Source of the DNA: Escherichia coli
GTDB lineage: Bacteria; Pseudomonadota; Gammaproteobacteria; Enterobacterales; Enterobacteriaceae
Length of the DNA stretch: 64,000 nucleotides
Strand: one strand, 5' to 3'
Assembly: GCF_001677475.2 (NCBI RefSeq)
Contig: NZ_CP015229.1
Part shown: positions 8,533 through 40,089 of the stretch, piece by piece
Layout of the letters: every line of letters begins with the position of its first letter
How positions within the stretch are numbered: position 1 is the stretch's first letter
The notes under the pieces: generated by a model
The model's database searches: none
What the model saw: the letters and a program-made list of their open reading frames with translations, nothing else
Told to the model about the DNA's origin: nothing
Made by a program: the position numbers and the translations under genes

Positions 8533-9486
8533 ATGACTGATATTGATGATGTTTTCAACACTATTAATACGTTGATCAACGAGGGCGACAAGCCCCAGGA
8601 AGATATTGCTGATGAGGCCGGAATGTCTCCGGCAACACTCTCGGCTCTGCGTAAAGGAGAATACAAAGGCAATGTCGAAGGTATGCATGACAAATTACAG
8701 GAATGGTATCGGGTCTGGCAAAAAGGGCAGAATTTGTCAGGTGCCCCCGGCGTTGTGAAGACCCAGACATTTTGTGATTTGCATGAGCTGTTTAAAACAG
8801 TGCGCTCACTCGGGATTATCAGTGTTGTTGTTGGCGTACCGGGTGTCGGCAAAACTTTTGCTGCACGGGAATATTGCCGCAAGACAGCTAATGCCTGGAT
8901 GGTGACGCTTGCACCGGCACATTCGAGCGTAACGGAATGCCTCCTTGAAATAGCATATGCGCTGGAAATTAATAATCCGGGAAGAAATAAGGGGAATATA
9001 ACCCGCGCCATTCGCAGAAAACTGGGCGGTGGTAAAGAAACCAGTGGCCGTGTTAACCCCCTGCTGATTATTGATGAAGCTGATCACTTAAGTGTGGATG
9101 GTCTGGAGCAATTACGCGCCATTCAGGATGCTACTGGCGTGGGGATGGTTTTAATTGGCAACCCGAAACAGATGGCGGATGCCACCCGTCGTGGGACTGA
9201 TGAACTGGCTCGTTTGTTCAGCCGTTTTGCCATGACAAAACAACTGCGCAAAGTGAAAAAGACTGATGTGATGGCTGTAGCCAAAGCATGGGGAGTAACA
9301 CAGGAAGATGAGCTGGATCTGCTGATGAGGGTTGCCGAAAAGCCCGGGGGATTGCGTGTATTAACTCACACACTGAATCATGCGTGGCTGGCGGCGAAAG
9401 GTGCTGGTTCATCCCTGAATAAAAGTCACATAAAAGCGGCTTTTAAGGAGGCTTACAGCAACCCTAAGTTGCTGAACTGGCAGTAA
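8533..9486 (+). CDS. Transposition ATPase B (AAA+ target-DNA activator)
   Basis: 317 aa; Walker A GVPGVGKT and Walker B LLIIDEADHL; immediately downstream of the transposase as in Mu. Confidence 0.8.
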   Translation: MTDIDDVFNTINTLINEGDKPQEDIADEAGMSPATLSALRKGEYKGNVEGMHDKLQEWYRVWQKGQNLSGAPGVVKTQTFCDLHELFKTVRSLGIISVVVGVPGVGKTFAAREYCRKTANAWMVTLAPAHSSVTECLLEIAYALEINNPGRNKGNITRAIRRKLGGGKETSGRVNPLLIIDEADHLSVDGLEQLRAIQDATGVGMVLIGNPKQMADATRRGTDELARLFSRFAMTKQLRKVKKTDVMAVAKAWGVTQEDELDLLMRVAEKPGGLRVLTHTLNHAWLAAKGAGSSLNKSHIKAAFKEAYSNPKLLNWQ

Positions 9487-13013: not shown

Positions 13014-13542
13014 ATTAATTCATGTTGCCCGTCGGGAGTTGCAACTCGACGATGACACTTACCGCGCCTTTCTGGTGCAGTGCACAGGCAAGACCAGTTG
13101 CCGCGAGCTGACCTTCGCACAACTGGAACTGGTGCTCGATGCCATGAAAGAGCGCGGTTTTAAGAAGCAGAAAAAACATCCCCGCCGTCGCTTTAAGGGG
13201 CATGTCACACCACGCGAGAAGATTTACAAAATCTGGCAGCAGATGTTTCTTGATGGTTTCGTCTCCGATATCAGCGACGCCGCGCTGGACAAATACGTTG
13301 AACGCCTGACGGCCAGACGTAATGGCGGTCAGGGTGTTTCCACGCTGGTCTGGTGTCACGGGGAATCGTTGCAGGTTGTGCTCGAAACGCTCAAGCAGTG
13401 GCACATGCGCTGCATCCGGGAAGCCTTTGCCCGACATGGTGTGCCGTTACCTGCAAGCCCATCCGGGCGGGAACTACGCGGATATGATGCACTGACCAGT
13501 GCATATGCCCGCGCACGAAACAGCGGGAGAATTGCTGTATGA
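12991..13542 (+). CDS. gemA: GemA-like (Mu gp16 / DUF1018) regulatory protein
   Basis: 183 aa directly upstream of mor, as in Mu; assignment from position and sequence recollection. Confidence 0.5.
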   Translation: MSRTSLIKLIHVARRELQLDDDTYRAFLVQCTGKTSCRELTFAQLELVLDAMKERGFKKQKKHPRRRFKGHVTPREKIYKIWQQMFLDGFVSDISDAALDKYVERLTARRNGGQGVSTLVWCHGESLQVVLETLKQWHMRCIREAFARHGVPLPASPSGRELRGYDALTSAYARARNSGRIAV

Positions 13543-13988
13543 AACAGATGAAAGAGCAGGATTTATTCGAAGACCTTCGGGACGACAGCGTTCTGGAATA
13601 TCTTCATGATTACCAGGAAAACACCGCTTATCCGGCGTTACTTTCTGAACTGAACGCACTGCTGCGTAAAGAGCTGGCCCGGATTGGCGCAGACCCTGCT
13701 CATTCCCTTGAGCTGGTTGTGGCGATTTGTCGCCATATCGGCGGGATGCAGGTTTATGTTCCGAGGGGGAATATTCTGGAGAATCTTGTCCGGGATATGC
13801 GTATCTGGCGTGATTTTAACGGTCATAATATTCCTGAACTGGTTCAGCGTTACGGGGTGACGTATAAAACCGTCTACAAGGCCATCAAACGGATGCGACG
13901 TCTGGAGCGCAATAAATACCAGCCGGATTTGTTTTACCCCTCCCCGAACCTGCCTCACCCCGTTCGTCGTCCACCACGACGCCCTTAA
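13539..13988 (+). CDS. mor: Mor/C-family transcriptional activator (middle operon regulator)
   Basis: 149 aa; Mor/C-family HTH region (...VYVPRGNILENLVRDMRIWRDFNGHNIPELVQRYGVTYKTVYKAIKRMRR); location before the lysis/late genes. Confidence 0.7.
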   Translation: MKQMKEQDLFEDLRDDSVLEYLHDYQENTAYPALLSELNALLRKELARIGADPAHSLELVVAICRHIGGMQVYVPRGNILENLVRDMRIWRDFNGHNIPELVQRYGVTYKTVYKAIKRMRRLERNKYQPDLFYPSPNLPHPVRRPPRRP

Positions 13989-13993
13989 TCAAT

Positions 13994-14018
13994 GAAGCCG
14001 GTAAATCCGGCTTTTTTT
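13994..14018 (+). terminator. Intrinsic terminator-like hairpin GAAGCCGG-TAAAT-CCGGCTTTTTTT after mor
   Basis: GC-rich inverted repeat followed by a T-run, directly after the mor stop. Confidence 0.6.
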
Positions 14019-14073
14019 ATGCCTCCGGCACCATGAAGCAGACCACGTTTAAATCTGCTTCACAGGTGCTTTT

Positions 14074-14670
14074 ATGGAAAATCAAAAATTCTCCCCGGCC
14101 TTTGAACATGCGCTGAATTTCATTCTGCGTCCCGATATCGAAGGCGTCTATGCCAATGACCCCACTGACCGTGGCGGTGAAACCAAATACGGCATTTCTG
14201 ACCGCCGCGACGGTGTGACTGACGGCAAAACCGATGTCAACGGCGACGGCAAACCGGATACCCGCATCAGGGATTTAACCCGCGAACAGGTTGCTCAGAT
14301 TTACTGGCGCGATTACTGGCTGCCTGCCGGATGTGACCAGTGGCCTGATGGCGTGGCGATGTTTGTGTTCGATGCGGCGGTTCAGCATGGCGTTAAAAAA
14401 GCTATCAGGATTTTGCAGGAAGCCGCGGATGTGGATGCTGACGGCATCATCGGCCCCCGTACCCGTAAGGCCGTGAGCCTGTCCACCCCGGACTGGCTGC
14501 TGGCCCGCTGCATTGTCCGTCGTTCCCGCTTTTATGCCGACATCATCAAGTCCAAACCCGCCCAGGGCAAATACCTGAACGGCTGGTTTAACCGCATGGA
14601 AAAGCTGACCGACGCCTGTCTGGAAATCATCGATACCCCTCCAGGCATCATGTCCGCCACGCGGGGGTGA
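14074..14670 (+). CDS. Endolysin (glycoside hydrolase family 108-like with peptidoglycan-binding domain)
   Basis: 198 aa; conserved N-terminal GH108-type region and PG-binding-like C-terminus; first gene of the late region. Confidence 0.7.
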   Translation: MENQKFSPAFEHALNFILRPDIEGVYANDPTDRGGETKYGISDRRDGVTDGKTDVNGDGKPDTRIRDLTREQVAQIYWRDYWLPAGCDQWPDGVAMFVFDAAVQHGVKKAIRILQEAADVDADGIIGPRTRKAVSLSTPDWLLARCIVRRSRFYADIIKSKPAQGKYLNGWFNRMEKLTDACLEIIDTPPGIMSATRG

Positions 14671-17732: not shown

Positions 17733-19264
17733 CACAGATGAACACGTTCAGTGAATCCGATGTTCTGCTGCCGTATCAGAAACGCTGGGTGGCGGATGAT
17801 TCAAAACTGAAAATCGCCGAGAAATCACGCCGTACCGGGTTAACCTGGGCGGAAGCGGCAGATGCAGCACTGACCGCATCACTGAAGAAGGAAAACGGCG
17901 GGCGCGATCACTTTTATATCGGTTCGAATAAGGAGATGGCCCGCGAATTTATCGACGCCGTAGCGATGTGGGCGAAAGCGTTTAATGCGGCAGCGGAAGA
18001 AATCCGCGAGGAAGTGATCACCGACGAAGACATGGACATTCTGACGTTCGTCGTGTACTTCGCCAGCGGTTTTAAGGTCAAGGCGCTGTCCAGCAATCCG
18101 GGCAACATTCGCGGGATGCAGGGGAATGTCACCATCGACGAAGCGGCGTTTCATGAAAAACTGGATGAGGTACTCAAGGCGGTCACACCACTGACCACGT
18201 GGGGCGGTAAGGTTCGCCTTATCTCCACCCATGACGGCGTGGACAACCCGTTTAACCAGCTGATTCAGGAGAGCCGCGCAGGCAAAAAAGATTACCGTAT
18301 TCACACCATCACGCTGGATGACGCCTGCAGTGACGGGCTGTACCGGCGTATCTGTCAGGTACGCGGCATGGAGTGGTCACCGGAGGCCGAGGCGGAATGG
18401 AAAGAAGGCCTGCTGCGAAATACCGCCACCCGCGAAGACGCCCTGGAGGAATATTACTGCGTCCCGAAAAACGGCGGCGGCACGTATATCCCCCGCTCAA
18501 TGCGTGAACGTGCAGCCCGTGGCACCGGAAAAGTGTTGCGCTTTACCGGCACACCGGAATTTAACGCACTGACGGAAAGCCAGCGCCGGGCAGATATCCG
18601 GGAATGGCTGGAAACGGTGGTGCGCCCTGAACTGGAAAAACTCCCACAGAACCTGCGCCACTGTCTGGGGGAAGACTTTGCGCGTTCGGGTGACCTGACT
18701 GTGCTGGCCCCGGTGACGGTGAACGACGACACCACCCGCGAGGTGCCGTTCCTGGTTGAGCTTGCCAATGTGCCGTTTAAACAGCAGGAGCAGGTACTGT
18801 TCTGGCTTTGCGATCGTCTGCCCCGTCGTGACGGCATCAAAATGGATGCGCGGGGGAATGGTCAGTATCTGGCAGAACAGGCGGCGGAGCGGTACGGCGA
18901 CGAGGTGGAACAGGTGATGCTGTCCGTGGCGTTTTACCGTGAAAACATGCCCCGTTTCCGTGCGGCGTTTGAAGATGATGAGCTGATCCTTCCGAAGCAT
19001 GAAGACGTGATCAATGACCTCGGGGCCATTCAGTTACTGCGTGGCGTTCCCGGCATTGATGATTCACGAACCAGAGGCAGCGACGGTCACAAACGTCACG
19101 GCGACGCCGCTGTGGCCATTTTCCTGGGCTTCCTTGCCAGTAAAGATGACTGCCACCGTTACGAACTGCACCGTCTGAACCGCCCGGCGAAACCGGAAGA
19201 ACGCAACGCGCGCCGCCAGCTGAAGCTGACGCGCGGCCTGAAAAATGAGGGAGGTTTACTGTGA
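17729..19264 (+). CDS. Terminase large subunit (Mu gp28-like)
   Basis: 511 aa, between DUF3486 gene and portal gene; overlapping stop/start coupling. Confidence 0.7.
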   Translation: MTQMNTFSESDVLLPYQKRWVADDSKLKIAEKSRRTGLTWAEAADAALTASLKKENGGRDHFYIGSNKEMAREFIDAVAMWAKAFNAAAEEIREEVITDEDMDILTFVVYFASGFKVKALSSNPGNIRGMQGNVTIDEAAFHEKLDEVLKAVTPLTTWGGKVRLISTHDGVDNPFNQLIQESRAGKKDYRIHTITLDDACSDGLYRRICQVRGMEWSPEAEAEWKEGLLRNTATREDALEEYYCVPKNGGGTYIPRSMRERAARGTGKVLRFTGTPEFNALTESQRRADIREWLETVVRPELEKLPQNLRHCLGEDFARSGDLTVLAPVTVNDDTTREVPFLVELANVPFKQQEQVLFWLCDRLPRRDGIKMDARGNGQYLAEQAAERYGDEVEQVMLSVAFYRENMPRFRAAFEDDELILPKHEDVINDLGAIQLLRGVPGIDDSRTRGSDGHKRHGDAAVAIFLGFLASKDDCHRYELHRLNRPAKPEERNARRQLKLTRGLKNEGGLL

Positions 19265-20832: not shown

Positions 20833-21589
20833 AACCCTCATCCCGAAAGAGGCGCTGGCGTGGCTGAAGGCGAAGAAGCTGCGCCCCGGTTTTGATTACC
20901 GGGATGTGTGGCGGGAAGAACACCGGAACAGCTTCACCGTGGCAAAAATGCTGCAACTGGATTTGTTGTCGGATGTGAAATCCCTTGTGGAAGACGCCCT
21001 GCAAAGCGGGCAGACGTTCAGCGAGTTCCGGGAGATGCTGCAACCGCTGCTGATAAAACGCGGATGGTGGGGCGTACAGGAGATGGATGATCCGCTGACG
21101 GGCGAAAGGCGCACCGTGCAACTGGGCAGCGACCGCCGCCTCCGCACGATTTTTGACACCAACATGCGCACCGCCCGCGCGGCGGGCCAGTGGGAACGCA
21201 TTCAGCGGACAAAGCGGGCCATGCCGTATCTGATTTATGAGCTGGGGCCATCCCGCGAGCACCGGGCGGAGCATGTGAAATGGGCGCGTCTGTGTCTGCC
21301 TGTAGACCACCCGTTCTGGCAGACGCATTTCGCCCCTAACGGCTGGGGCTGCAAATGCACCATCCGTCAGGTCAGCCGTGGTGAGTATGCGCAACTGGCG
21401 GCACAGGGCACCATTCACACCGAAGCGCCGGAAATCAGGACTGTCCGCTGGGTGAACAAACGTACGGGCGAAGAGGAAGAGGTGCCGGAAGGGATTGATC
21501 CGGGCTGGAACTACAATCCCGGTATAAACCGTGAGCAGGAGCTGGCGCGCCAGCTGGCGACAAAACAGGCCCGTTTTGACAGTGAGTAA
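20825..21589 (+). CDS. Head morphogenesis protein (Mu F-like)
   Basis: ATG 20825 overlapping portal stop; position after the portal gene. Confidence 0.6.
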   Translation: MRETLIPKEALAWLKAKKLRPGFDYRDVWREEHRNSFTVAKMLQLDLLSDVKSLVEDALQSGQTFSEFREMLQPLLIKRGWWGVQEMDDPLTGERRTVQLGSDRRLRTIFDTNMRTARAAGQWERIQRTKRAMPYLIYELGPSREHRAEHVKWARLCLPVDHPFWQTHFAPNGWGCKCTIRQVSRGEYAQLAAQGTIHTEAPEIRTVRWVNKRTGEEEEVPEGIDPGWNYNPGINREQELARQLATKQARFDSE

Positions 21590-21726
21590 CCCTCCCGCCG
21601 TAAATCCCCCTGAAACGCATCAGAAACGCGTTTTTTATTCTGATGGCGTGAATGTGCATTCTGACGTTTTTGAAGATGCTGTGGCGTTTTTGAAGGGGTT
21701 TTGAAGGGGGTATTTCCCCGTTTTCA

Positions 21727-21753
21727 GTGAAGCCGGTAAATCCGGCTTTTTTT
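21727..21753 (+). terminator. Second copy of the GAAGCCGG-TAAAT-CCGGCTTTTTTT hairpin
   Basis: Same hairpin plus T-run as at 13994-14018, in the F-to-I intergenic region. Confidence 0.55.
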
Positions 21754-21802
21754 CTGCCTTCCGCATACTGACCGTCGGTAACCCCAGACGACGGAGACTG
21801 AC

Positions 21803-22758
21803 ATGCAACCGGAACTGCTGGCGCTGTGTTTTTCCCTGCCAGAACCCATCCCTGAGCTGACACCTGCTCAACTGCCGGAATGGCTCGAACTTGTCCCTGC
21901 GGGTGAGTTCACCGGCGCGATGGCCGGACGTGGATTAACCGCAATCCGCATGAGGTGGTTGCCCGTTCGTCCGGCATCAAAATTCCGGTGGATATTGAAC
22001 ACGCCACCGAAATTAAAGGCCCGCGTGGTGAAGATGCTCCGGCGTATGGCTGGGTGGAAGAACTGCGGGTGACGGACAGCAGCACCATTGAAGGGCGTGT
22101 TGTCTGGAGCGAGTCCGCCCGCTGGATGCTGAGCGAGCGCCGCTACCGCTATTACAGCCCGGCGTTTTTCTTTGACGCGGAAGGCGTAGTGACGCGCCTG
22201 TCCAGCGTCGGGCTGACCAACAAACCTAACCTGGATTTTCCTGCACTGAATACGGAGAAAAACCTGATGACAGTACCTGTGCAAATCACCGGCCTGCTTG
22301 GGCTGGCTGAATCTGCCACGGTGGACGATACCGTGGCCGCCATTAAACAACTTCAGGAGAACGAACAGGTGGCGCTGAACCGCGCACAGACACCTGATCT
22401 GACGAAGTTTGTGCCGGTGGAAACCCACAATCTGGCCCTGAACCGTGCCGAAACCGCAGAACAACGCCTTCAGCAACTTGAAGAGAAGGAAGCAGAAGCG
22501 CTTGTGGATGCGGCCATCGAAGCCGGAAAAGTGGCCCCGGCAAACCGTGACATGTTCCTTGCCACCTGCCGCACGGAAGAAGGCCGCAAACAGTTTGCGG
22601 AGTACACCAGAGGCGCACAGCCGCTGGTGAACAACGACAAGCCCAGCCAGGGCAAGGATAAACCCGCGCAGACACTGACCGACACCGAACTGGCGATGTG
22701 CCGCAGCATGGGTATTACCGGGGAAGAGTTCCTCGCCGCTAAACCGAAACAGGAGTAA
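21803..22758 (+). pseudogene. Head protease/scaffold (Mu I-like) with an apparent -1 frameshift near 21915
   Basis: N-terminal part (...LPEWLELVPAGEFTG) is in one frame (ORF 21803-22072), the rest (RDGRTWINRNPHEVVARSSGIKIPVDIEHATE...) in the -1 frame (ORF 21955-22758); joined by one missing base after ACCGG at about 21914. Confidence 0.55.
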
Positions 22759-34984: not shown

Positions 34985-35764
34985 ATGTTTCACGTGGACA
35001 ATAATACGGGTGTGCCTGTTATGCCGCCTGTTGCGGCTGAATTAAGCAAAACAACGCTTTATTTCACCGAAGGCGGGAACGGTATTCCAGCCACTTATCC
35101 AGGACCAGACTGGTTTAATATTATTCAGTCTGAACTGCTGGAAATTCTCCGGCAGGCAAATATCAAACCGGATAAAAATACCACCAACCAGATTATGACG
35201 GCGCTGAAAAAACTGTTTATTACGAACAGTGGTTCAGCCGGAGCTATTGCTGGATTAACCGGTGAGAATAATACGTTCCCGTATTTTACCGGCGAAGACG
35301 AAATGGCATTAACGCCGCTCAGTGCGTTTGTGCGCGGCATTCTTGGTAAAACCACAGCCGATGAAATTATTGATGCACTTTCATTACGTGACACGGTAAA
35401 TAAAGCCAGTAGTGCCGTACCGAATACCCGCAGGGTCAACGGCATGGCCCTGACTTCAGATATCACCATCAGCAACATCAGCGGCAACGCCGGAACGGCA
35501 ACCCGACTTCAGACGGCCCGCAGGATTAACAATGTGCTGTTTGATGGTTCCGGTGATATCACAATCCCTGCCGGGATGAGTCAGTCCACAGCGGATGCGC
35601 GTTATGTTCAGAACGTTCAGTTAGGTGCGCAGGTACAGGGGGGATCTCAGGCACCCACAGGGTGTGTGGTCACCTTTGTTGATGGCGGCGAGAAGATGGA
35701 ATATATCCAGTATAAACCCCTGCAAATTTATATTAACGGCGCATGGCGCACGATATCCGGTTAA
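34985..35764 (+). CDS. Tail fibre protein (short; S-like)
   Basis: 259 aa; followed by an assembly chaperone gene. Confidence 0.55.
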   Translation: MFHVDNNTGVPVMPPVAAELSKTTLYFTEGGNGIPATYPGPDWFNIIQSELLEILRQANIKPDKNTTNQIMTALKKLFITNSGSAGAIAGLTGENNTFPYFTGEDEMALTPLSAFVRGILGKTTADEIIDALSLRDTVNKASSAVPNTRRVNGMALTSDITISNISGNAGTATRLQTARRINNVLFDGSGDITIPAGMSQSTADARYVQNVQLGAQVQGGSQAPTGCVVTFVDGGEKMEYIQYKPLQIYINGAWRTISG

Positions 35765-38559: not shown

Positions 38560-39135
38560 ATGAAAATCAGAGCGGTGAAAGGTATCAGAAACGCACATTA
38601 TCTTGAAAATGGTGCGGTTGACTGCGAGGTGTTATTTGAAGGTGAAACGGAGTTCGCCCTGTATACTGCCATACAGGATGATATGGCCCCGACAGGCCAG
38701 CACATCTGGCAGGAGCTGCAAAGCGGGAAATGGGGCGAAATCGCCCCGTTCACCGTCACGCCGGAACTTATTGCAGCGGCAAAGGATGCCAAAAGGCGGG
38801 AAATTGAGGCATGGCGCGACAGTCAGGAAAACGTTGAGTTTATTTTCACGTTTGATGGCCGTCGTTTTGATGGCGGAAAAACCTCGCAGTCACGCCTTGC
38901 CCCCGTGGTTGCAGCAGCGCAGGCCGGACTGCTTCCGGAGGGATTTTTCTGGACTGATGCGGATAATAACAACGTCGTACTGACCAGGGAGAAACTTATT
39001 GCGCTGAACGATGCCATGATGGTGGCCATGGTGACGGAGGGCTTTAAAATCCACGAACGCCAGCGCGAGATGAAAGAGCAACTTTCCCTGCTGTCCACAC
39101 TGAGCGATATAAGAGCGTTAACGCCCGGTTATTAA
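38560..39135 (+). CDS. Tail fibre assembly protein (second Tfa)
   Basis: ATG 38560 (alternative ATG 38545 right after the fibre stop); about 191 aa downstream of the long fibre gene. Confidence 0.5.
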   Translation: MKIRAVKGIRNAHYLENGAVDCEVLFEGETEFALYTAIQDDMAPTGQHIWQELQSGKWGEIAPFTVTPELIAAAKDAKRREIEAWRDSQENVEFIFTFDGRRFDGGKTSQSRLAPVVAAAQAGLLPEGFFWTDADNNNVVLTREKLIALNDAMMVAMVTEGFKIHERQREMKEQLSLLSTLSDIRALTPGY

Positions 39136-39158
39136 GTCATCATTTTGTATAGTTTATA

Positions 39159-39257
39159 ACGATCGATACAATCGTATCGATCGTCAGTTTGCATCATCTG
39201 TGATTAAATACCCTGGCCCTCAGGGCTGTCGTATCTGGTTAATACACAGGTGGGATC
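39159..39257 (+). promoter_or_regulatory. com-mom upstream control region with GATC-containing inverted repeat
   Basis: Inverted repeat ACGATCGATAC/GTATCGATCGT (39159-39184) carrying two GATC sites, a third GATC at 39254-39257 abutting the com ATG. Confidence 0.45.
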
Positions 39258-39443
39258 ATGGATGCTGTTCGTTGTAAAAACTGCAATAAATTGCTGTTTA
39301 AAGGAAGTTTTAAGCATATAGAAATCAAATGCCCTCGTTGTAAACGTTACATTGTCATGTCGAGTGCCCGGGAGCATCCCACGGAGCTGTATTGTGGGAA
39401 AAGAGAAGAAATCACGCATCCTTACAAAACCCTGCGTTATTGA
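39258..39443 (+). CDS. com: Com zinc-finger translational activator of mom
   Basis: 61 aa; [10 protein letters not shown]...CPRCKR four-Cys zinc finger closely resembling Mu Com; overlaps the mom 5' end. Confidence 0.8.
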
Positions 39444-40089
39444 GTATGAAGGCCGTATTGTCGGCTATGGTTCAAGGGAACTGCGCGTTGAAACCATATC
39501 CTGCTGGCTGGCCCGCACAATCATTCAGACAAAGCACTATTCCCGCCGTTTTGTGAATAACTCCTGGTTGCATCTGGGGGTATTCAGCGGACGTGATCTG
39601 GTTGGCGTTCTCCAGTGGGGATACGCCCTTAATCCCAACTCAGGGCGTCGGGTCGTGCTGGAAACGGATAACCGGGGCTATATGGAACTGAACCGCATGT
39701 GGTTACACGACGACATGCCCCGCAACTCTGAATCACGGGCTATCAGCTACGCACTGAAAACCATCAGGTTACTGTATCCATCAGTGGAGTGGGTTCAGTC
39801 CTTTGCAGACGAACGCTGCGGACGTGCAGGTGTTGTGTATCAGGCATCTAATTTTGATTTTATTGGTAGCCATGAAAGCACGTTCTACGAGCTGGACGGC
39901 GAGTGGTATCACGAGATAACGATGAACGCGATTAAGCGTGGAGGACAACGAGGCGAGTATTTGCGGGCTAATAAGGAGCGGGCGGTGGTACACAAATTTA
40001 ATCAGTATCGCTACATCAGATTCCTGAACAAGCGCGCAAAAAAGCGATTAAATACCAAGCTATTCAGGATTCAGCCATACCCGAAGTGA
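39394..40089 (+). CDS. mom: Mom DNA-modification protein (anti-restriction)
   Basis: Frame open from 39352; start placed at GTG 39394 (231 aa, start uncertain); last gene before the prophage right end as in Mu. Confidence 0.7.

Follow-up and report, generated by a model that had tools for sequence, protein, structure and literature searches.

The prophage and its repeated hairpin

The DNA analysed here (the window) is a 64-kb stretch of Escherichia coli sequence, which carries a Mu-like prophage. Its early side consists of the repressor gene, ner, the transposase genes A and B, gemA and then mor (13539-13988, plus strand), the final gene of the early operon. The 149-aa product of mor is assigned to PHROG 532, "late transcriptional activator" (E 5e-41). 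It is 63% identical to Mu Mor and 32% identical to Mu C, and its recognition helix, VTYKTVYKAIKRMRR, is nearly identical to the helix of Mu Mor. A tblastn search of the window found no second gene of the Mor/C family, and hence no C gene. The middle operon is also absent, and the endolysin gene directly follows mor. This gene (14074-14670, plus strand; PHROG 315 endolysin, E 1e-53) is of the GH108 type, its homologues in E. coli relatives being annotated as glycoside hydrolase family 108. It is the first gene of a lysis and packaging operon, in which it is followed by other lysis and small genes, the small and large terminase genes, the portal gene and F (ending at 21589). After a gap of 213 bp, gene I (21803-22758, plus strand; PHROG 328), for the head maturation protease/scaffold, is the first gene of the head-tail operon, and the gene for the major head protein T, the tail genes and com/mom follow.

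Some other features of the window were recorded. The C-terminus of its Mor (13935-13988) is longer than that of Mu Mor by a 20-aa extension containing QPDLF, which resembles C (HQPDLF) and not Mu Mor (QPSLL), and QPDLF matches a C-terminal clamp-binding consensus reported for the Mor/C family (PMC12867686). Gene I is frameshifted at 21914, where one homopolymer nucleotide present in the intact E. coli homologue is missing. Single-base homopolymer deletions at 21914, 23436, 23498 and 23608 together frameshift I and the major head gene T when compared with the intact E. coli relative L007, and they represent either errors of a homopolymer-prone sequencing platform or a decaying prophage. The com/mom operon lies at 39135-40086, with a Mom 95% identical to Mu Mom; the region upstream of mom retains the GATC cluster but not the TTAT-N6-ATAA C box of Mu Pmom. 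A tandem duplication of about 2.3 kb (48780-52400) lies outside the prophage body, and each of its units contains a full-length match to the Hfq-binding sRNA isrA (48931-49059, 115 bits; 51449-51577, 104 bits). In the collection of near-relative phages, no close isolate is present: the best matches, the Yersinia phages vB_YpM_5 and vB_YpM_6 and the Klebsiella phage Kp4866-3, show a DNA identity of about 70%. Mu-like prophages of the present group, which is without C, occur in 48 of 5426 complete E. coli genomes and in about 90 viral contigs.

An earlier note on this sequence had reported the same terminator-like hairpin twice in the prophage, and this is confirmed. The 25-mer GAAGCCGGTAAATCCGGCTTTTTTT occurs exactly twice in the 64-kb window, both times on the plus strand, as copy 1 at 13994-14018 and copy 2 at 21729-21753 (the second had been placed from 21727, which must be corrected to 21729). 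No further copy was found in the window with up to 3 mismatches, and 100 shuffles of the sequence gave no match at all, so none is expected by chance. The exact identity between the copies covers 26 nt (13993-14018 and 21728-21753), within a wider repeat of 49 nt that is 86% identical (13982-14030 and 21717-21765; repeat family D11). As also reported, the flanks are related, the left one being TCA[A/G]TGA and the right one [A/C]TGCCT(T)CCG.

RNA folding predicts for each copy a stem of 8 bp that closes a 5-nt loop and has a run of U's behind it (dG -12.6 kcal/mol; z-scores against shuffles of -2.9 and -3.7 for the two copies). Both copies are picked up by a simple terminator scan as a GC-rich stem-loop followed by seven T's and co-oriented with the upstream genes. 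Copy 1, with its stem-loop at 13994-14014 and T-run at 14012-14018, begins 5 nt past the mor stop codon (13986-13988). Copy 2, with its stem-loop at 21729-21749 and T-run at 21747-21753, lies 139 nt past the stop of F (21589) and 50 nt ahead of the ATG of I (21803). An Rfam search of both sites returned no family at its gathering score; the only matches, sub-threshold hits to sroD (22 bits against a cut-off of 50), reflect the terminator shape.

Correspondence with the Mu promoters Pm and PI

Immediately 3' of mor, phage Mu carries AAAGCCGGTTAATCCGGCTTTTTTT, which is the middle promoter Pm. Pm and Mor have been studied by the Howe laboratory (PMC4287176, PMC4390567), and a cryo-EM preprint is also available (10.1101/2025.05.02.651988). 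The published Mor site extends from -51 to -36 and consists of two 5-bp inverted repeats around a G/C-rich hexanucleotide (PMC4287176). We rebuilt the Pm numbering from the primer tables in PMC4390567 together with the Mu sequence. In this numbering, the G of CTTCTGTAAAC falls at -57 and its C at -52, after which AGTA follows, and the Mor dyad from -51 to -36 is AGTAAAGCCGGTTAAT (AGTAA-AGCCGG-TTAAT). The hexamer TATCCT at -13 to -8 is the -10 hexamer, the T-run occupies -30 to -24, and the right arm of the hairpin is the -35 region. A cloning primer named "Mu Pm nt9163" includes the hairpin (PMC9239132).

The 25-mer of the window corresponds to about -47 to -23 of Mu Pm, and 23 of its 25 bases are identical. 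The Mor box takes in the left arm and loop of the hairpin together with the bases that immediately precede it. In copy 1, the box is AATGA-AGCCGG-TAAAT (13991-14006, plus strand), which agrees with the Mu Pm box at 13 of 16 positions, and in copy 2 it is AGTGA-AGCCGG-TAAAT (21726-21741, plus strand), with 14 of 16. Dyad symmetry is 3/5 in the window boxes compared with 4/5 in Mu. A regular-expression scan of the 64-kb window for such boxes returned only these two on the plus strand. We also considered the palindrome GCCGG-N5-CCGGC itself as the Mor site. This candidate was ruled out, since the published box has the GC-rich hexamer as its spacer and lies half a turn further left. In the stretch from -57 to -52, where Pm-type promoters have an A/T-rich proximal UP subsite, copy 1 has TTAATC, copy 2 has GTTTTC and Mu has GTAAAC; all three are A/T-rich, and the sequence is not conserved among relatives.

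Downstream of each box, a hexamer is found at the spacing of Mu Pm. For copy 1 it is the -10-like CACCAT (14029-14034, plus strand), 22 nt after the box as is TATCCT in Mu, which would place the start of transcription at about 14042. For copy 2 it is CATACT (21764-21769, plus strand), again 22 nt after the box, with a predicted start at about 21777. These starts would fall 32 nt (endolysin) and 26 nt (I) ahead of the start codons and, given them, the box is centred about 43.5 nt upstream of the start. CACCAT matches TATAAT at only 3 of 6 positions and is a poor -10 hexamer. A sigma-70 scan requiring both hexamers reported no promoter at either site; we account for this by the lack of a -35 hexamer at Pm-type promoters, where the -35 region is CCGGCT, though the scan does not positively support a promoter either.

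No third Mor-type site was found before the tail genes or com/mom, either with up to 4 mismatches in intergenic DNA or by the consensus expression, and the single extra match to the core is on the minus strand within a tail-fibre gene (35252-35263). The transcript from I would therefore need to span about 17 kb, or other, unrecognised promoters exist.

The second site can be compared with another Mu promoter, the C-dependent PI. Just upstream of copy 2, part of the F-I gap (21640-21725, plus strand) is homologous to the Mu G-I gap with its strong gyrase site (alignment with Mu 17860-18062), and this block is also present in the relatives; it contains repeated units similar to CGTTTTTGAAG. In the same alignment, the -10 hexamer and leader are homologous as well, with CCGCATACTGAC in the window against CCGCAAACTGAC at Mu PI. 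The C-type box of Mu PI, CATAACCCC..., is replaced by the Mor box at copy 2. The C-box consensus has been given as TTAT-N5-6-ATAA (PMC12867686); it is absent at copy 2, which does not classify as a C-dependent promoter. The distribution among genomes follows the activator genes. Where mor is accompanied by C (in Mu, in vB_YpM_5 and in a few contigs), the Mor box is present at Pm only, while in genomes with mor alone (the window and, as a complete genome, Kp4866-3) it precedes both the lysis genes and I. We read this as a replacement of the activator box at an otherwise conserved I promoter, which would imply a two-step cascade from the early genes through Mor to the late genes. It would be a natural example of regulatory rewiring, in which the activator box is swapped and the -10 hexamer and leader are kept.

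Conservation among relatives and alternative readings

An exact-pattern scan of viral contigs gave 113 occurrences of the element; because the scan required the exact 21-mer, its sample of sites before the endolysin gene (lys sites) is biased. All 113 are at one of the two syntenic positions. The next gene, always 50-88 nt further on, is the GH108 endolysin gene in 84 cases, I in 24 cases and Mu E18 in one. On the upstream side the neighbour differs: either mor lies 10 nt off, or there is an extra ORF and mor is 350-550 nt distant. The E. coli relative L007 is a case with the extra ORF, in which the element has remained beside the endolysin gene. When lineages are compared, A[A/G]TGA, the T-run, the 10-nt spacer and a CAnnAT hexamer (CAYACT before I) are kept in register, and beyond about -53 the sequences are unrelated. 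The -10 hexamers of the relatives include CAAAAT, CACTAT, CATGAT and CATAAA in register at the lys site, and CATACT or CACACT at the I site.

To correct for the bias, loci were also retrieved by the Mor protein alone (n=80). The exact 21-mer follows mor in 77 of them, two loci end before the element, and one has a single mismatch; across the loci, Mor identity drops to 54%. The only Mor-encoding locus without the exact 21-mer (L170, IMGVR_UViG_2531839192_000008, 2414-2475) contains a partial copy, AGCCGGTTAATCCGG..., followed 41 nt later by a full copy with one mismatch, TGCCGGTTAATCCGGCTTTTT, which is a local tandem rearrangement. The invariant 21-mer can serve as a convenient marker for the clade.

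The I-site copies were taken from contigs found via their lys-site copy, so this sample was not selected for I-site sequence. Among its 12 distinct variants, columns 1-18 (the box and CC) show little or no variation. The right arm and T-run are free to vary, as in CCACCTGAGTCC, CCACTTTCTTCT and CCATCTTCCCTT, and the T-run is gone in several lineages. The stem positions pair in 77% of cases compared with 75% in shuffles; lineage L012 has a compensated GGCGG/CCGCC stem. Judged from these sequences, promoter function is the conserved function of the element, and at the I site what is conserved is the protein-binding half and not the RNA hairpin, because the right arm and T-run are often lost there and the Mor box is kept. 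The earlier note had pointed to related prophages for comparison: the same element is indeed found there at the same positions, but at the I site it is the terminator features that are lost in many of them and the Mor box that stays.

The alternative that retains most weight is that the element is purely an intrinsic terminator, used once after mor and once after F, with no promoter role. The shape of the element is canonical, with its 8-bp GC-rich stem, 5-nt loop, seven T's and dG of -12.6 kcal/mol, and copy 1 starts immediately behind the mor stop codon. After mor, the right arm and T-run are invariant, which suggests an added constraint such as termination, and the Mu early transcript is reported to end at about 9.2 kb, where this hairpin is located (Mu 9177-9200). 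Nevertheless, we consider a terminator without promoter role to be improbable. Two conserved features, the 3-5 nt upstream of the stem (A[A/G]TGA) and the -10 hexamer at fixed spacing, are not required for termination. It is the gene behind the element, and not the one before it, that lies at a fixed distance. Among the I-site copies the left half is kept, and the stem and U-run have decayed, with pairing no better than in shuffles. Also, the homologous Mu sequence is an experimentally defined promoter (PMC4287176, PMC4390567, PMC9239132).

A terminator function in addition to that of a promoter is another matter. Since the right arm and T-run are invariant after mor, though Mor-type promoters evidently can manage without them, the early transcript likely terminates at copy 1. 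The invariance of the post-mor element (77 of 80 loci) indicates a strong constraint, under which covariation cannot show. In the window's own clade, copy 2 retains the full hairpin and seven T's, and it may also end the first late transcript. The original description as a terminator is thus plausible for copy 1, just after the last early gene, but it missed the identity with the Pm core and the spaced -10 hexamers. Of the transcript ends that the two hairpins were thought to mark, the early one is likely at copy 1; the sites mark late starts more securely, and a separate middle operon is not borne out, as C is absent.

A second alternative is that the copies are identical through recent duplication or gene conversion, the second being a passenger without function. 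The 26-nt identity and the related flanks would fit, and the two sites of a genome agree in their loop variant, an outcome that occasional gene conversion might also produce. However, lineages with F and I proteins only 59-67% identical to the window's (L029, L036, L053, L065, L072 and L102) also have both copies, in the same two places. Each site has a long-standing signature of its own, with A at -50 (AATGA) and CAnnAT at the lys site, and G at -50 (AGTGA) and CAYACT at the I site. The diverged I-site copies also keep exactly the protein-binding half, which points to selection on function. We therefore regard recent duplication as very unlikely, and the earlier suggestion of duplication or recombination at module boundaries is not supported. 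Because both sites exist in diverged lineages with site-specific signatures, the identity of the repeat is in our reading old and maintained by selection on a shared binding site.

Finally, it is scarcely credible that the palindrome GCCGG-N5-CCGGC is the site of some other protein (a host factor or a phage repressor) or a small mobile repeat unrelated to Mor: its arms do form a perfect 5-bp inverted repeat, and 11 such strings with at most 1 mismatch are found in the window against 3.2 expected, but only the two copies are exact, and the other nine, each with one mismatch, fit neither the 25-mer nor the pattern of the Mor box. Relatives can dispense with the right arm at the I site, a pair of copies at fixed syntenic positions within 64 kb does not make a dispersed repeat of the REP or MITE type, and no Rfam family reaches threshold.

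The paired sites also vary along with Mor. In 17 of 18 lineages, by visual comparison, the two sites of a genome share one loop variant, either TAAAT or TTAAT. In 53 distinct Mor proteins, the variable residue of YKAI[K/R]RMRR is K with TAAAT in 29 of 29 cases and R with TTAAT in 19 of 24. The residue is encoded in the window at about 13880-13900, and the box base concerned, -39 (A or T), is at 14003 and 21738. Residue and base may co-evolve, though the pattern is clade-structured and shared ancestry could explain it. The paired sites are in any case natural variants with which Mor specificity can be studied.

Proposed late switch and comparison with known systems

The sequence homology with Pm, the spacing, the single activator gene and the pattern of conservation are direct observations. 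From them we infer Mor binding, the start sites, Mor dependence and termination. Each copy is, with good confidence, the core of a Mor-dependent sigma-70 promoter of the Pm type, which has no -35 hexamer and through which Mor would switch on the late genes directly, because the activator C is absent. In the proposed sequence of events, the early transcript leads to the production of Mor, which would bind the 16-bp box (AATGA/AGTGA-AGCCGG-TAAAT) and recruit RNA polymerase, with the -10 hexamer 22 nt downstream. Transcription from about 14042 would then express the endolysin and the lysis and packaging genes through F, and transcription from about 21777 would express I, T and the remaining head and tail genes. 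RNA arriving from upstream would form the stem-loop and U-run instead, so that copy 1 most likely doubles as the stop of the early transcript behind mor; copy 2 might terminate as well, although this would not be its conserved function. An annotation trap is corrected in this way, in that a textbook-looking terminator would be first of all an activator-dependent promoter and would mark the starts of the late operons.

Both leaders contain inverted repeats near the ribosome-binding site. In the endolysin leader, a nested inverted repeat (14024-14070, plus strand; dG -22.8, z -4.3) has the outer stem GGCACC (14027-14032, over the -10 hexamer) with GGTGCT (14065-14070) and the inner stem GAAGCAG with CTGCTTC; the GGTGCT arm covers the Shine-Dalgarno sequence AGGTG at 14064-14068. 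In the I leader, the inverted repeat CCGTCG/CGACGG (21772-21796, plus strand) overlaps the Shine-Dalgarno sequence GGAG (21793-21796) with its 3' arm. In the window and in relatives L004-L116, the 5' arms of these repeats overlap the -10 hexamer and the predicted start, and the 3' arms cover the Shine-Dalgarno sequence.

Leader structure was assessed by folding each sequence separately with shuffles. No consensus structure emerged when RNAalifold was applied to 24 endolysin leaders aligned with MAFFT, since variable loops misaligned the arms. Among 12 diverse relatives, 11 have an endolysin leader with z from -2.7 to -6.1 despite quite different sequences, and compensated outer stems were seen, such as CCGGAA/TTCCGG and ATGCCTGC/GCAGGCAT. 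The repeat of the I leader is weak in the window (6 bp, z -1.0), but its counterparts in relatives and at Mu PI reach 9-11 bp and show compensatory changes. RNA that begins at the predicted endolysin start loses the leader structure, with a mean MFE of -5.1 kcal/mol compared with -21.3 for RNA started upstream, and pairing in the ribosome-binding window is 0.49 compared with 0.71.

As the 5' arms lie upstream of or at the start, only RNA read through from upstream could fold the leader hairpin. The leader hairpins may therefore block the translation of read-through transcripts, which would mean that the terminator leaks. A late switch of three layers before both late operons in the clade without C (the terminator, the Mor promoter in the same hairpin and the leader hairpin), together with co-evolution of the K/R residue and base -39, is a tentative proposal, which we hold to be possible rather than probable. 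If it is true, leaked RNA hides its ribosome-binding site and only RNA started by Mor is translated, as in the case of T4 lysozyme. What is moderately new is confined to the two-step cascade and to a possible coupling of translation to the choice of promoter. The results illustrate how a widespread group of Mu-like prophages would run without C, and the understanding of Mu regulation is not overturned.

When compared with Mu Pm, the sites share the identical AGCCGG hexamer, and the 16-bp box, the CCGGCT -35 region, the T-run and the 22-nt distance to the -10 hexamer match. Copy 1 is also positioned directly after mor, and both systems are without a -35 hexamer. The differences are that Mu Pm drives a short middle operon ending in C and the sites here would drive the endolysin/packaging genes directly, that this prophage has a second copy before I, and that the half-sites are AATGA/AGTGA and TAAAT here but AGTAA and TTAAT in Mu, with differing -10 hexamers. 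The cascade of Mu has three steps, and for this prophage we propose two.

With Mu PI, the I site shares its position after the gyrase-site region and before I, the homologous -10 hexamer and leader, the inverted repeat ahead of the ribosome-binding site and an activator box centred about 43 nt upstream of the start. The difference is in the box, which is Mor-type here and C-type in Mu, and in the C gene, which is absent from the window. The likeness to intrinsic terminators consists of the GC-rich stem-loop, the immediate U-run, the orientation with the upstream genes and, for copy 1, the position 5 nt past the mor stop codon. Unlike such terminators, the element overlaps an activator site and a promoter, and the I-site relatives lose the stem and U-run and keep the left half.

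The leader arrangement resembles that of the lysozyme gene e of phage T4, in which, as McPheeters et al. reportedly described in 1986, late promoters lie within a hairpin by which early read-through RNA conceals its ribosome-binding site. In both systems the 5' arms coincide with the -10 region and the first transcribed bases, and the 3' arm covers the Shine-Dalgarno sequence of the endolysin. The present case differs from T4 in its activator system, in being deduced from sequence, and in having a similar, weaker arrangement also before I.
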